Source: Escherichia coli | GTDB lineage: Bacteria; Pseudomonadota; Gammaproteobacteria; Enterobacterales; Enterobacteriaceae | DNA length: 64,000 bases | Direction: 5' to 3' (one strand) | NCBI RefSeq assembly: GCF_051903065.1 | Contig: NZ_CP178438.1 | Shown here: one piece after another, positions 18,082 to 45,899 of the stretch | Layout of the letters: every line of letters begins with the position of its first letter | Position numbering within the stretch: the stretch's first letter is position 1 | The notes under the pieces: generated by a model | Told to the model about the DNA's origin: nothing | Seen by the model: the letters and a program-made list of their open reading frames with translations, nothing else | The model's database searches: none | Position numbers and translations under genes: made by a program

Positions 18082-19248
18082 ATGAACTTACATGAATATC
18101 AGGCAAAACAACTGTTTGCCCGCTATGGCTTACCAGCACCGGTGGGTTATGCCTGTACTACTCCGCGCGAAGCAGAAGAAGCCGCTTCAAAAATCGGTGC
18201 CGGTCCGTGGGTAGTGAAATGTCAGGTTCACGCTGGTGGCCGCGGTAAAGCGGGCGGTGTGAAAGTTGTAAACAGCAAAGAAGACATCCGTGCTTTTGCA
18301 GAAAACTGGCTGGGCAAGCGTCTGGTAACGTATCAAACAGATGCCAATGGCCAACCGGTTAACCAGATTCTGGTTGAAGCAGCGACCGATATCGCTAAAG
18401 AGCTGTATCTCGGTGCCGTTGTAGACCGTAGTTCCCGTCGCGTGGTCTTTATGGCCTCCACCGAAGGCGGCGTGGAAATCGAAAAAGTGGCGGAAGAAAC
18501 TCCGCACCTGATCCATAAAGTTGCGCTTGATCCGCTGACTGGCCCGATGCCGTATCAAGGACGCGAGCTGGCGTTCAAACTGGGTCTGGAAGGTAAACTG
18601 GTTCAGCAGTTCACCAAAATCTTCATGGGCCTGGCGACCATTTTCCTGGAGCGCGACCTGGCGTTGATCGAAATCAACCCGCTGGTCATCACCAAACAGG
18701 GCGATCTGATTTGCCTCGACGGCAAACTGGGCGCTGATGGCAACGCCCTGTTCCGCCAGCCTGATCTGCGCGAAATGCGTGACCAGTCGCAGGAAGATCC
18801 GCGTGAAGCACAGGCTGCACAGTGGGAACTGAACTACGTTGCGCTGGACGGTAACATCGGTTGTATGGTTAACGGCGCAGGTCTGGCGATGGGTACGATG
18901 GACATCGTTAAACTGCACGGCGGCGAACCAGCTAACTTCCTTGACGTTGGCGGCGGCGCAACCAAAGAACGTGTAACCGAAGCGTTCAAAATCATTCTCT
19001 CTGACGACAAAGTGAAAGCCGTTCTGGTTAACATCTTCGGCGGTATCGTTCGTTGCGACCTGATCGCTGACGGTATCATCGGCGCGGTAGCGGAAGTGGG
19101 TGTTAACGTACCGGTCGTGGTACGTCTGGAAGGTAACAACGCCGAACTCGGCGCGAAGAAACTGGCTGACAGCGGCCTGAATATTATTGCAGCAAAAGGT
19201 CTGACGGATGCAGCTCAGCAGGTTGTTGCCGCAGTGGAGGGGAAATAA
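18082..19248 (+). CDS. sucC: Succinyl-CoA synthetase beta subunit
   Basis: 388-aa ORF, recognised SucC sequence. Confidence 0.97.
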
Positions 19249-20117
19249 TGTCCATTTTAATTGATAAAAACACCAAGGTTATCTGCCAGGGCTTTACCGG
19301 TAGCCAGGGGACTTTCCACTCAGAACAGGCCATTGCATACGGCACTAAAATGGTTGGCGGCGTAACCCCAGGTAAAGGCGGTACTACCCACCTCGGCCTG
19401 CCGGTGTTCAACACCGTGCGTGAAGCTGTTGCTGCTACTGGCGCTACCGCTTCTGTTATCTACGTACCAGCACCGTTCTGCAAAGACTCCATTCTGGAAG
19501 CCATCGACGCAGGCATCAAACTGATTATCACCATCACTGAAGGCATCCCGACGCTGGATATGCTGACCGTGAAAGTGAAGCTGGATGAAGCAGGCGTTCG
19601 TATGATCGGCCCGAACTGCCCAGGCGTTATCACTCCGGGTGAATGCAAAATCGGTATCCAGCCTGGTCACATTCACAAACCGGGTAAAGTGGGTATCGTT
19701 TCCCGTTCCGGTACACTGACCTATGAAGCGGTTAAACAGACCACGGATTACGGTTTCGGTCAGTCGACCTGTGTCGGTATCGGCGGTGACCCGATCCCTG
19801 GCTCTAACTTTATCGACATTCTCGAAATGTTCGAAAAAGATCCGCAGACCGAAGCGATCGTGATGATCGGTGAGATCGGCGGTAGCGCTGAAGAAGAAGC
19901 GGCTGCGTACATCAAAGAGCACGTTACCAAGCCAGTTGTGGGCTACATCGCTGGTGTGACTGCGCCGAAAGGCAAACGTATGGGCCATGCGGGTGCCATC
20001 ATTGCCGGTGGGAAAGGGACTGCGGATGAGAAATTCGCTGCTCTGGAAGCCGCAGGCGTGAAAACCGTTCGCAGCCTGGCGGATATCGGTGAAGCACTGA
20101 AAACTGTTCTGAAATAA
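19248..20117 (+). CDS. sucD: Succinyl-CoA synthetase alpha subunit
   Basis: 289-aa ORF; start overlaps sucC stop. Confidence 0.97.
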
Positions 20118-20216
20118 ATATCTGTAATAAGAAATAGCCCTCGCCGCTTCCCTCTACAGGAATGGCGAAGGGCTGTCGGTTTCGACATGGTTGGCCATCG
20201 TATGATGGCCTTTTTT
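20118..20216 (+). ncRNA. sdhX: 3'UTR-derived small RNA SdhX (RybD) at the end of the sdh-suc transcript
   Basis: About 100 nt directly after the sucD stop with two stem-loops, the second a GC hairpin plus T-run terminator; position matches the described sucD 3'UTR sRNA. Confidence 0.5.
20193..20216 (+). terminator. Rho-independent terminator of sdhCDAB-sucABCD / sdhX
   Basis: Hairpin GGCCATC-GTAT-GATGGCC followed by TTTTTT. Confidence 0.75.
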
Positions 20217-20352
20217 ATGTCTTAAACGGTTAACCACGGTCGAAATCTGACTGCAGGCTTGACTGCATGACCACAACCACTGTGGATTGCCGCGACCGGT
20301 GATGCTGCCAACTTACTGATTTAGTGTATGATGGTGTTTTTGAGGTGCTCCA

Positions 20353-20628
20353 GTGGCTTCTGTTTCTATCAGCTGTCCCTCCTGTTCAGCTACTGACGGG
20401 GTGGTGCGTAACGGCAAAAGCACCGCCGGACATCAGCGCTATCTCTGCTCTCACTGCCGTAAAACATGGCAACTGCAGTTCACTTACACCGCTTCTCAAC
20501 CCGGTACGCACCAGAAAATCATTGATATGGCCATGAATGGCGTTGGATGCCGGGCAACAGCCCGCATTATGGGCGTTGGCCTCAACACGATTTTACGTCA
20601 CTTAAAAAACTCAGGCCGCAGTCGGTAA
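20353..20628 (+). CDS. insA: IS1 InsA (transposition inhibitor, N-terminal part of InsAB' transposase)
   Basis: 91-aa [25 protein letters not shown]... recognised IS1 InsA. Confidence 0.9.
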
Positions 20629-21050
20629 CCTCGCGCATACAGCCGGGCAGTGACGTCATCGTCTGCGCGGAAATGGACGAACAGTGGGGCTATGTCGGGG
20701 CTAAATCGCGCCAGCGCTGGCTGTTTTACGCGTATGACAGGCTCCGGAAGACGGTTGTTGCGCACGTATTCGGTGAACGCACTATGGCGACGCTGGGGCG
20801 TCTTATGAGCCTGCTGTCACCCTTTGACGTGGTGATATGGATGACGGATGGCTGGCCGCTGTATGAATCCCGCCTGAAGGGAAAGCTGCACGTAATCAGC
20901 AAGCGATATACGCAGCGAATTGAGCGGCATAACCTGAATCTGAGGCAGCACCTGGCACGGCTGGGACGGAAGTCGCTGTCGTTCTCAAAATCGGTGGAGC
21001 TGCATGACAAAGTCATCGGGCATTATCTGAACATAAAACACTATCAATAA
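20547..21050 (+). CDS. insB: IS1 InsB reading frame (expressed as InsAB' via -1 frameshift)
   Basis: Overlapping -1 frame ORF; slippery A-run (TTAAAAAACTC) at about 20603 in the insA/insB overlap. Confidence 0.85.
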
Positions 21051-21560
21051 GTTGGAGTCATTACCGCCGCGACCGACCGCAAGCCACGAATAAGAACGAC
21101 GGCGAATTTCGAATCGTTACCTGATGCACTGGCTTCCCAGCGTTTGACCGTAGCGTTAAGTAAATCAACAAAAGCGATGTTCACCGCTTTTCGTCAAGTC
21201 GTGCCATTTGTCAGCCAGGATCGGGTCTTTACCCCGGATATTGCAGCATCGCAAAAATTCTTAGATGGATATGCTATAAATCAAAAATAAAATCTTTGTT
21301 GATTGTTTATCATAATATCCACAGATATGATAAATGATATCAATTTAATAATTTTCACTTAATGTGATTCCGGATAATTCGAAAGGCGCTGTGCTTTTCG
21401 GATTATTATTATCTGATTAAGATATTTGTCACGCCAGCCTTACTGGTTTATAAATGTCAATCATGATTCTTATAAATTATTTATTGCTGCTTTGGTTACC
21501 ATTACTTCGTAATAAGTAATGTATTTTTGATGGTTTAAACTATTTTTAAGGGACGGCATT

Positions 21561-22153
21561 ATGCGAGGGAAAATACCTAAAACGGAACTGCTGGTGACTT
21601 TTGAGGTCGTCGCACGTCATGAAAGTTATACCAGAGCGGCAGAGGAGTTAGCGTTAACCCAAAGTGCAGTATTCAGACAAGTAAGTGCGCTGGAGGAATT
21701 TTTACGTACTCCGTTATTTTCACACTCTAAAAAACGCATTTTTCTTAATGATACAGGGAAGTATTACCTGGGGATAGTAAAAGAAACATTAAATAAGCTG
21801 GAACGCGATACCAATACCATTATGACCTGGCAGCCTACGGTTCAGGTTATTGAACTTGCCGTTAATCCTACTTTTAGTACCCACTGGTTGATCCCAAATT
21901 TACATGAATTCACAAAGTTACATCCCGATATTATTGTTAATATTCATTCTTTAGCTAATAACGGCGATTTTCTTAATCGGGAGTACGATGCTGTCATTAT
22001 GCGCGAAAATTTTTGCGCGCCCTGGGCGGAAGTAGAATATCTCTTTGATGAGGAGATTTTGCCGGTATGCAGCGGCAGTTTGCTTGCAATGTCCGATCAA
22101 AAGCTGTCAGTGGCAGAACTGCTTACTGAGTTACCGCTTCTGCATCAAAGCAC
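21561..22153 (+). pseudogene. LysR-family transcriptional regulator gene, 3'-truncated by IS903-type element
   Basis: N-terminal LysR-type HTH (ESYTRAAEELALTQSAVFRQVSALEE) and start of substrate-binding domain; frame runs straight into the IS inverted repeat at 22154; about 200 codons of an expected roughly 300. Confidence 0.7.
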
Positions 22154-23210
22154 GGCTTTGTTGAATAAATCAGATTTCGGGTAAGTCTCCCCCGTAGCGG
22201 GTTGTGTTTTCAGGCAATACGCACGCTTTCAGGCATACCTGCTTTCGTCATTTTGTTCAGCGCTCGTACCAGGGCCATAGCCTCTGCAACCTGACCATCG
22301 TAGTCACGCAGTGTCAGTGAACCCCCGAACAGCTGTTTTACCCGGTACATCGCCGTTTCCGCTATCGAGCGACGGTTGTAATCTGTTGTCCATTTCCACC
22401 GCGCATTACTCCCGGTCATTCGCTGATTAGCCACTGCACGGTTACGGTCTGCATATTCACCGGGCCAGTAACCCGCACCTTTTCGGGGAGGGATAAGCGC
22501 GCTGATTTTCTTACGCCGCAGTTCATCGTGACATAGCCGGGTATCGTAAGCGCCATCGGCGGCGGCTGACCTGATTTTCCGGTGGGTTTGCCGGATTAAC
22601 CCGGGGAAGGCCTCTGAGTCCGTAACGTTGTTCAGCGACAGGTCAGCGCAGATGATTTCATGTGTTTTACTGTCAACGGCGAGATGCAGCTTACGCCAGA
22701 TACGGCGGCGTTCCTGGCCATGCTTTTTGACTTTCCACTCGCCTTCACCGAAGACCTTCAGCCCGGTGGAATCAATTACCAGGTGTGCGATTTCACCCCG
22801 GGTGGGCGTTTTGAAACTGACATTAACCGACTTTGCCCGCCTGCTGACACAGCTGTAATCCGGGCAGCGTAGCGGAACGTTCATCAGAGAAAAAATGGAA
22901 TCAATAAAGCCCTGCGCAGCGCGCAGGGTCAGCCTGAATACGCGTTTAATGACCAGCACAGTCGTGATGGCAAGGTCAGAATAGCGCTGAGGTCTGCCTC
23001 GTGAAGAAGGTGTTGCTGACTCATACCAGGCCTGAATAGCTTCATCATCCAGCCAGAAAGTTATGGAGCCACGGTTGATGAGGGCTTTATTGTAGGTGGG
23101 CCAGTTGGTGATTTTGAACTTTTGCTTTGCCACGGAACGGTCTGCGTTGTCGGGAAGATACGTGATCTGATCCTTCAACTCAGCAAAAGTTCGATTTATT
23201 CAACAAAGCC
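22154..23210 (-). mobile_element. IS903-type insertion sequence (IS5 family), 1057 bp, no target-site duplication
   Basis: 18-bp terminal inverted repeats GGCTTTGTTGAATAAATC at both ends; single transposase ORF; flanks TCAAAGCAC vs ATTTATCAG do not match. Confidence 0.85.
22210..23133 (-). CDS. IS903-type transposase (DDE, IS5 family)
   Basis: ORF ending ...KAGMPESVRIA, recognised as IS903 transposase; start placed at the GTG giving 307 aa (longest ORF extends to 23178). Confidence 0.85.
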   Translation of the reverse strand: MAKQKFKITNWPTYNKALINRGSITFWLDDEAIQAWYESATPSSRGRPQRYSDLAITTVLVIKRVFRLTLRAAQGFIDSIFSLMNVPLRCPDYSCVSRRAKSVNVSFKTPTRGEIAHLVIDSTGLKVFGEGEWKVKKHGQERRRIWRKLHLAVDSKTHEIICADLSLNNVTDSEAFPGLIRQTHRKIRSAAADGAYDTRLCHDELRRKKISALIPPRKGAGYWPGEYADRNRAVANQRMTGSNARWKWTTDYNRRSIAETAMYRVKQLFGGSLTLRDYDGQVAEAMALVRALNKMTKAGMPESVRIA

Positions 23211-23581
23211 ATTTATCAGGCGAAAGTGGCCTCTGTTCACTCAGAAACAATCACTCCCGGTAAGTCATACCTGTTTCATCGATACATTTAAGTGATTATT
23301 ACTAATGAAACAATAACATAACGGGCTTACGGTCGGTGCTCATAAAGGCAACAATCAATTAACTTTGATAAAAATATGTTATGTAAAATAGCAACAAATT
23401 GGCTACTCTAATCAATTGGTATTATAAAAAGTTGATTGGGCGGTTCTGTTAAATAAAACACTGGTTTTTTATCTATACCTTTTCATTGTAATAATTGTGT
23501 TGCATAAATATTTCACAATAAATTAACAATAAAATCACCAATGATCTATGGTTTATACATAATTAACATATTTGGTTGGTT

Positions 23582-23595
23582 TTGATATAAATCAA
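23582..23595. promoter_or_regulatory. FNR-consensus box in cydA upstream regulatory region
   Basis: Perfect TTGAT-N4-ATCAA (TTGATATAAATCAA) about 340 bp upstream of cydA in a long AT-rich leader. Confidence 0.5.
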
Positions 23596-23932
23596 TTTTT
23601 AATTCTTGAAAAAAATCTGCAAAACACGATAAATTGTCGTAGATCAAATTGGTGAGATCGTGACAATTTCGCTATAAATTGATCACTGTCGAAAAATGCA
23701 AATTTGCTCAATAAAAACCTGTTTATTGTAAGGATTTTGCGGCGTAATATAATTACGGGATCAATTTGGTTTATTCATTAACATATTTGTAACTTTTTTA
23801 TCATTGTCTTTTCCTCTTTTGATGAAATGGCAACGATAGAGGCGAGCAAATAATTTTGTATTGGGGCATGCGTGTGACCCTTTCTAACGGGGTTCACTCT
23901 CGGAGTCTTCATGCGATGAGCAAGGAGTCATG

Positions 23933-25501
23933 ATGTTAGATATAGTCGAACTGTCGCGCTTACAGTTTGCCTTGACCGCGATGTACCACTTCCTTTTTGT
24001 GCCACTGACGCTCGGTATGGCGTTCCTGCTGGCCATTATGGAAACGGTCTACGTCCTTTCCGGCAAACAGATTTATAAAGATATGACCAAGTTCTGGGGC
24101 AAGTTGTTTGGTATTAACTTTGCTCTGGGTGTGGCTACCGGTCTGACCATGGAGTTCCAGTTCGGGACTAACTGGTCTTACTATTCCCACTATGTAGGGG
24201 ATATCTTCGGTGCGCCGCTGGCAATCGAAGGTCTGATGGCCTTCTTCCTCGAATCCACCTTTGTAGGTCTGTTCTTCTTCGGTTGGGATCGTCTGGGTAA
24301 AGTTCAGCATATGTGTGTCACCTGGCTGGTGGCGCTCGGTTCAAACCTGTCCGCACTGTGGATTCTGGTTGCGAACGGCTGGATGCAAAACCCAATCGCG
24401 TCCGATTTCAACTTTGAAACTATGCGTATGGAGATGGTGAGCTTCTCCGAGCTGGTGCTTAACCCGGTTGCTCAGGTGAAATTCGTTCACACTGTAGCGT
24501 CTGGTTATGTGACTGGCGCGATGTTCATCCTCGGTATCAGCGCATGGTATATGCTGAAAGGTCGTGACTTCGCCTTCGCTAAACGCTCCTTTGCTATCGC
24601 TGCCAGCTTCGGTATGGCTGCCGTTCTGTCTGTTATTGTTCTGGGTGATGAATCTGGTTACGAAATGGGCGACGTGCAGAAAACCAAACTGGCTGCTATT
24701 GAAGCTGAGTGGGAAACGCAACCTGCGCCTGCTGCCTTTACTCTGTTCGGCATTCCTGATCAGGAAGAGGAGACGAACAAATTTGCGATCCAGATCCCTT
24801 ACGCGCTGGGCATCATTGCAACGCGTTCCGTGGATACTCCAGTTATCGGCCTGAAAGAACTGATGGTGCAGCATGAAGAACGCATTCGTAACGGGATGAA
24901 GGCGTACTCTCTGCTCGAGCAACTGCGTTCTGGTTCTACCGACCAGGCGGTTCGTGACCAGTTCAATAGCATGAAGAAAGACCTCGGTTACGGTCTGCTG
25001 CTGAAACGCTATACGCCAAACGTGGCTGATGCGACTGAAGCTCAGATTCAACAGGCAACCAAAGACTCCATCCCGCGTGTAGCGCCGCTGTACTTTGCGT
25101 TCCGTATCATGGTGGCGTGTGGCTTCCTGCTGCTGGCAATCATCGCGCTCTCTTTCTGGAGTGTCATCCGCAACCGCATTGGCGAGAAAAAATGGCTCCT
25201 GCGCGCCGCGCTGTACGGTATTCCGCTGCCGTGGATTGCTGTAGAAGCGGGCTGGTTCGTGGCTGAATATGGCCGCCAACCGTGGGCTATCGGTGAAGTG
25301 CTGCCGACAGCTGTGGCGAACTCGTCACTGACCGCAGGCGATCTCATCTTCTCAATGGTGCTGATTTGCGGCCTGTATACCCTGTTCCTGGTGGCAGAAT
25401 TGTTCTTAATGTTCAAGTTTGCACGCCTCGGCCCAAGCAGCCTGAAAACCGGTCGCTATCACTTTGAGCAGTCTTCCACGACTACTCAGCCGGCACGCTA
25501 A
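23933..25501 (+). CDS. cydA: Cytochrome bd-I ubiquinol oxidase subunit I
   Basis: Recognised CydA sequence; start placed at second Met ([12 protein letters not shown]). Confidence 0.97.
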
Positions 25502-45832: not shown

Positions 45833-45899
45833 TTTGTATCCCATTTTTTGCAGCGATTAATGACAGGGATACGTGTTTCATAACAAATTGTCAACACGC

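Follow-up and report, generated by a model that had tools for sequence, protein, structure and literature searches.

Probable preservation of the cydAB control region beside a putative IS903B deletion scar in a non-K-12 haplotype of Escherichia coli

The mngB-cydA spacer of Escherichia coli K-12, which precedes the cydAB operon, is 847 bp long, contains five promoters and is controlled by FNR, ArcA and H-NS. Its promoters and regulation were reportedly worked out by Cotter et al. in 1997 and by Govantes et al. in 2000, and footprinting is said to have been carried out by Lynch and Lin in 1996. IS elements lying upstream of operons sometimes activate them, as in the case of IS5 upstream of bgl, glpFK and flhDC, and hybrid promoters can be formed with a -35 box from an IS end. 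The FNR site of K-12 cydAB is centred at -53.5 of promoter P1, where FNR represses in anaerobiosis (Myers et al. 2013, PMC3688515), and a further transcription start site (TSS) of cydA was mapped at -172 (Kim et al. 2012). ChIP-seq data delineated three ArcA regions upstream of cydA, located after coordinate conversion at -600/-570, -421/-370 and -155/-125, and ArcA is thought to act at cydAB by antagonising H-NS (Park et al. 2013, PMC3798270). The K-12 spacer itself has been flagged as H-NS-bound (PMC3946193). Regarding IS903, adjacent deletions are common, and ISs devoid of target site duplications have been attributed either to such deletions or to recombination between ISs (PMC11708052).

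The window analysed here, a 64-kb stretch of E. coli DNA, displays the gene order sucCD - IS1A - LysR' - IS903B - cydABX-ybgE, which is also the annotated order in strain 23CRST027. The region under study (23211-23932, plus strand) is bounded on one side by the right inverted repeat of IS903B, ending at 23210, and on the other by the RefSeq start of cydA at 23933, with an alternative ATG at 23930. It lies directly upstream of cydA (cytochrome bd-I subunit I, 23933-25501, plus strand), followed by cydB, cydX and ybgE. Its 722 bp have a GC content of 32.1%, compared with 50.4% for the window, so that it falls in the bottom 0.3% when all 722-bp windows are ranked by GC. The GC content is ~40% in the ~90 bp adjoining the IS junction and 20-34% in the AT-rich core (approximately 23300-23850). 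No ORF of at least 50 aa lying wholly inside the region was present in the ORF list of the window, nor was any RefSeq annotation found inside its counterpart in any matching genome. The original prediction of an AT-rich, non-coding stretch of about 720 bp was therefore accurate. Its description as a "cydAB leader" has to be narrowed: an intact cydAB control region does extend up to the IS, but the leader in the strict sense would correspond to the last ~291 nt (if P1, as inferred, is the start) or ~172 nt (if the second TSS is), the remainder being promoter and operator DNA. In our opinion, the region very probably comprises the 5' UTR and the control region of cydABX-ybgE, both native and fully intact, as found in an E. 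coli haplotype other than that of K-12, works most likely as described for K-12, and owes no change in cydAB regulation to the neighbouring deletion.

The FNR sites and promoters were located as follows. A perfect TTGAT-N4-ATCAA consensus, TTGATATAAATCAA, is present at 23582-23595 (FNR-1). Its K-12 homologue is TTGATATTTATCAA, the site whose centre lies at -53.5 of P1. A perfect site occurred in only 0.7% of dinucleotide-preserving shuffles of 23211-23932. The region also contains 5 TTGAT and 5 ATCAA half-sites where 4.3 +/- 2.0 were expected, a total of 10 being reached in 0.9% of shuffles. Both the perfect FNR box and the additional half-sites noticed beforehand thus withstood this control. 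P1-like hexamers, TTGAAA-18-TAAATT, were recognized on the plus strand at 23606-23635 from their sequence and from the -53.5 FNR spacing (PMC3688515), and would place the start of P1 at about 23642, i.e., -291 from the ATG. The second FNR site (FNR-2, TTGTCGTAGATCAA, 23634-23647) has 2 mismatches, is centred 52 bp downstream of FNR-1 and overlaps this start. One FNR site was therefore found approximately 53.5 bp upstream of P1 and another over its start, as is described for the cydAB promoter region. Further downstream, a second promoter on the plus strand, TTGTAA-16-TATAAT (23726-23753, 10/12 matches), corresponds by homology to the promoter that serves the -172 TSS in K-12, and its start is expected at about 23761. 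Elsewhere in the window, a second perfect FNR consensus, TTGATCGAAATCAA, was observed at 18664-18677 inside the sucC coding sequence, where it may be due to chance.

ArcA boxes were predicted with a position weight matrix (PWM) built from the 112 ArcA boxes of Park et al. 2013 (PMC3798270), cyd boxes excluded, at a threshold of at least 13 bits. Seven boxes were obtained in the 722 bp, out of 12 in the whole 64 kb, with an average of 0.23 per shuffle. They form three groups, each being the positional counterpart of one K-12 region: a distal cluster (14.0 and 17.3 bits; 23348-23382, -585 to -551) for cydA1 (-600/-570), a middle cluster (14.1, 20.6, 14.7 and 16.2 bits; 23486-23569, -447 to -364) for cydA2, and a single proximal box on the minus strand (20.2 bits; 23778-23795, -155 to -138) for cydA3. 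Sequence prediction thus reproduces the three ArcA regions of the cydAB promoter region. The same layout of three ArcA clusters and two FNR sites was found in CFT073, in E. albertii and in more than a dozen other genera of Enterobacteriaceae. The distal ArcA box, on the plus strand, is located at -563 to -622 in more than 12 genera, although the surrounding sequence is unconserved. Its position at about -560 to -620 across genera provides an estimate of the reach of the functional region that is independent of sequence conservation. Outside the region under study, further boxes of at least 13 bits were detected at 9871-10192 (three boxes), 45880-45897 and 63399-63416, the three first ones probably belonging to the gltA-sdhC intergenic region, which ArcA is known to target.

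Comparison of the sucD-cydA interval among E. coli genomes distinguished three alternative haplotypes: a K-12 type carrying mngRAB (~3,180 genomes), a type shared by the window and O157, carrying a LysR-methylaspartate island (~1,120-1,136 genomes), and a B2/CFT073 type (~1,123 genomes). The alignment with the K-12 mngB-cydA spacer that had been proposed as a check was performed and proved informative for the proximal part only. K-12 could be aligned with the window from -376 (window position 23557) to the ATG, at 86.6%, whereas no homology was detectable from -377 to -722 (local alignment z = -0.65 against shuffles), K-12 being of a different haplotype. The distal cyd regulatory DNA of K-12 shows no detectable homology to that of ~41% of strains. 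It is worth noting that a strong ArcA box is found at about -570 to -590 in both the K-12 and the window type despite this lack of distal homology. As for the B2/CFT073 type, its distal cyd DNA matches that of the window at ~81%, from -641 downstream only. Because K-12 carries a different sucD-cydA interval, the informative references for the IS junction were IS-free strains of the window's own haplotype, namely GF3-3 and EC2641.

In this haplotype, the native intergenic DNA between a divergent hypothetical gene and cydA measures 805 bp, of which the distal 83 bp have been removed and 722 bp kept, the deletion ending 83 bp short of the start codon of the divergent gene. The retained part is 100% identical to EC2641 (722/722 positions). 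The IS903B junction is thus located at -722 from the cydA ATG. This leaves 137 bp between the junction and the outermost of the predicted ArcA boxes (-585), and ~430 bp between the junction and the inferred P1. Every position corresponding to a K-12 ArcA ChIP-seq region, the most distal one (-600/-570) included, is likewise downstream of the junction, as are the FNR sites; as had been anticipated, the FNR-1 box is downstream of the junction, at a distance of 371 bp. With the B2-type haplotype, sequence similarity extends no further than -641, and cross-genus similarity ends between -351 and -485, save for the isolated distal ArcA box. Beyond about -640 and up to the junction, no conserved or predicted site was found among the E. 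coli haplotypes, in the other genera or with the PWM. According to these predictions, all known or predicted cydAB regulatory sites survive. The possibility that the IS had cut into the regulatory architecture was consequently abandoned, since the junction lies beyond every known or predicted site, the very outcome named in advance as its refutation. With the junction outside all cyd sites, cydAB regulation is expected to be unchanged. A cydAB control region beside IS903B is an ordinary finding: the junction spares the whole regulatory module of a well-known control region located next to a routine IS-mediated deletion, and matters little for the question raised.

Binding and regulation in this strain would be as in K-12, judging from the K-12 data and from the conservation of the sites. 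Phosphorylated ArcA (ArcA-P), bound to the three clusters of direct-repeat boxes, would relieve H-NS silencing of the AT-rich promoter region in microaerobiosis, and FNR, bound at its two sites (-53.5 and -1.5 of P1), would repress in anaerobiosis. Transcription from several promoters would generate a long cydA 5' UTR. As to H-NS binding over the promoters and oxygen-dependent expression, what 23211-23932 itself shows is AT-richness (20-34% GC).

Two ISs are found between sucD and cydA. IS1A (20298-21065, plus strand), located between the 3' end of sucD and the LysR gene, is a simple insertion flanked by a 9-bp target duplication, GCCGCGACC. It lies ~180 bp downstream of sucD, past a stretch homologous to the K-12 sdhX sRNA. 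The LysR-family regulator gene (21561-22153, plus strand) encodes the HTH_1 domain and the first half of LysR_substrate, its 3' end being truncated by IS903B (22154-23210, minus strand). The latter displays the features expected of this element, i.e., a length of 1057 bp, perfect 18-bp terminal inverted repeats (IRs, GGCTTTGTTGAATAAATC) and a single DDE transposase (22210-23178) matching Pfam DDE_Tnp_1_5 (E 3e-40) and DDE_Tnp_1 (E 7e-33), named 'IS5-like element IS903B family transposase' in RefSeq and transcribed away from cydA. No 9-bp target duplication was found at IS903B, the flanks tcaaagcac and atttatcag being unrelated. As these 9-bp flanks differ, IS903B does not represent a simple insertion, which leaves the identity of the element unaffected.

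In the IS-free strains GF3-3 and EC2641, the DNA between the two flanks comprises the rest of LysR, cobO, a class I fumarase, a dicarboxylate transporter, DUF4387 and AtuA-like genes, methylaspartate ammonia-lyase, glutamate (methylaspartate) mutase E, L and S, and two hypothetical genes without Pfam match. Blastn placed the breakpoints at window position 22153, corresponding to 7532 of the reference locus L003, and at window position 23210, corresponding to 20000 of L003, so that ~12,468 bp are missing. These 12.5 kb were not found elsewhere in the 64-kb window. Likewise, a search for the island at 99% identity or more was negative in the near-identical complete genomes 23CRST027 and 23CRST031, and from these two relatives we infer that it is absent from the rest of this chromosome. 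On the basis of these sequence comparisons, IS903B is interpreted as the scar of a ~12,468-bp deletion that removed the 3' end of LysR, the methylaspartate/glutamate-mutase island and two AT-rich hypothetical genes. Such a deletion would have arisen either by adjacent deletion, as known for IS903, or when two IS903B copies recombined. The LysR'-IS903B-cyd junctions occur in only two of 5,426 complete genomes, 23CRST027 and 23CRST031, and no intermediate that would distinguish the two routes, such as an ancestral IS903B flanked by target duplications at either breakpoint, was found among the 5,426. Over the 10 kb compared, the window and 23CRST027 are 100% identical, apart from a 47-bp duplication. 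Both junction-sharing genomes carry this tandem duplication of the right end of IS903B, with two copies of the terminal IR, and the window is devoid of it (positions 6065-6158 of the 23CRST027 locus L001 versus 23164-23210 of the window). In strain GN25 (3114-4088 of locus L005), the divergent hypothetical gene harbours an independent IS903B, ~290 bp further upstream than the junction of the window, which suggests that IS903B repeatedly targets the AT-rich DNA preceding cydA.

Alternative interpretations of the junction were considered. The one that survives best, although it remains improbable, states that the deletion alters cydAB expression indirectly, either because loss of a ~2-kb AT-rich domain and of the divergent promoter weakens or alters H-NS silencing of P1-P4, or because transcription of the truncated LysR gene reads through the IS. 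The native upstream DNA, ~2 kb at 26-42% GC, is indeed a plausible H-NS domain and is replaced here by IS903B at ~53% GC; the reported H-NS binding to the K-12 spacer (PMC3946193) and the view of ArcA as an H-NS antagonist at cydAB (PMC3798270) speak in the same direction, and no terminator-like site was found on the plus strand between LysR' and the cyd region. However, neither the AT-rich core (23300-23850) nor any ArcA or FNR site has been altered, the ~90 bp nearest to the junction are already at ~40% GC and are unconserved even in the B2 haplotype, and the rarity of the junction (two of 5,426 complete genomes) provides no hint that it has spread or been selected. An effect on H-NS spreading is moreover unlikely because K-12 and CFT073 run the cyd module beside entirely different upstream DNA.

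The proximity of IS903B to the cyd control region could also evoke constitutive expression of cydAB from an outward or hybrid promoter of the IS. This is highly improbable, since no sigma-70-like or other promoter-like site was found on the plus strand in 22900-23300, be it out of the IS end (22900-23210) or spanning the junction, the transposase gene points the other way, and the IS end is separated by ~430 bp from P1 and by 722 bp from the ATG. A transcript starting there would, besides, have to traverse the FNR and ArcA operators. An assembly artefact, in which a collapsed repeat joined two separate IS903B copies, is scarcely credible either: relatives do carry IS903B at ~19-20 places per genome, a repeat load able to mislead assemblers, and differ from the window by the 47-bp duplication of the IS end, but both junctions recur in two independently assembled complete genomes, which lack the island at the expected identity. 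Retention of an intact and normally regulated control region is thus the reading that we favour.

Within this control region, the most proximal part showed a feature of another nature. K-12 and the window share the last ~96 nt before the cydA ATG without any difference, in contrast with the variable DNA that immediately precedes them, and this segment contains a putative RNA hairpin of the 5' UTR (23872-23899, -61 to -34, plus strand) supported by covariation. Its flanks, UAUUGGGGCAUG and GAGUCUUCAUGCGAUGAGCAAGGAGUC, are near-invariant; the latter includes the Shine-Dalgarno sequence, and two GGAGUC motifs are found in the flanks. The hairpin arms vary between genera yet stay complementary, and all 27 unique Enterobacteriaceae variants fold at the same place. 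When the sequences were aligned with MAFFT alone, pairing held in 78.6% of cells, and 8 of the 10 pairs have changed on both sides; none of 500 shuffles reached the observed number of paired cells, of cells changed on both sides, or the covariation score. A covariance model derived from this alignment retrieved the element upstream of cydA in 65 loci and matched the window at 23854-23935. In the model-fitted alignment, which leans toward structure by construction, 86.2% of cells pair, all 10 pairs show compensatory changes (89 cells, compared with 31.8 in shuffles), and a slide control gave a sharp peak at register 0. RNAalifold missed the hairpin on the raw MAFFT alignment because loop indels shift the arms out of register; it was recovered by per-sequence folds, by imposing the structure explicitly and by the covariance model.

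A scan of 19500-24500 against Rfam at E <= 1 gave no match in 23211-23932, and the sole match returned was a ClpQY_promoter inside the IS, at chance level (E 0.98). Likewise, our search for literature on the mRNA or leader of E. coli cydA returned only work on Rickettsia. A 21-codon upstream ORF (uORF, 23868-23933), whose stop overlaps the cydA ATG, was also considered as the cause of conservation of the proximal UTR and was rejected, since its frame, length, ATG and stops are unconserved across the 27 Enterobacteriaceae variants, in contrast to base-pairing. Covariation therefore supports a predicted hairpin conserved across Enterobacterales, for which mRNA stability or translational control, possibly via the two GGAGUC motifs, are candidate roles. 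A covariation-supported cydA 5'-UTR hairpin that is absent from Rfam may be useful to specialists, as may the haplotypes and the distal ArcA box. We regard as doubtful the proposal that one of two unusual situations prevails: either the IS903B deletion strips a ~2-kb AT-rich domain, thereby lowering H-NS silencing and raising aerobic cytochrome bd-I expression in this lineage, or the 23872-23899 hairpin and its flanks constitute an undescribed post-transcriptional control or stability element of the cydA mRNA, conserved across Enterobacterales.

Among known systems, IS903/IS903B deletion scars (IS5 family, IS903 group) resemble the junction described here in that a complete IS903B, with intact IRs and transposase, stands as a single copy at the deletion junction without target site duplication. 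IS-mediated promoter activation shares with it an IS5-family element upstream of an H-NS-influenced operon, but differs in that no outward or hybrid promoter was found at the IS end and in that all promoters and operators are a long way downstream of the IS. The closest counterpart remains the K-12 cydAB region. In both, a perfect FNR box precedes the ATG by ~345 bp and is followed 52 bp further on by a second FNR box that covers P1; three ArcA clusters lie near -590, -400 and -150; the TSS at -172 has its promoter; the core is AT-rich, and the final 96 nt of the 5' UTR are the same. They differ in the upstream neighbour, which is mngB in K-12 and other DNA in the window, in the central bases of FNR-1 (ATAA in the window, ATTT in K-12) and in FNR-2, which has 2 mismatches in the window and 1 in K-12.
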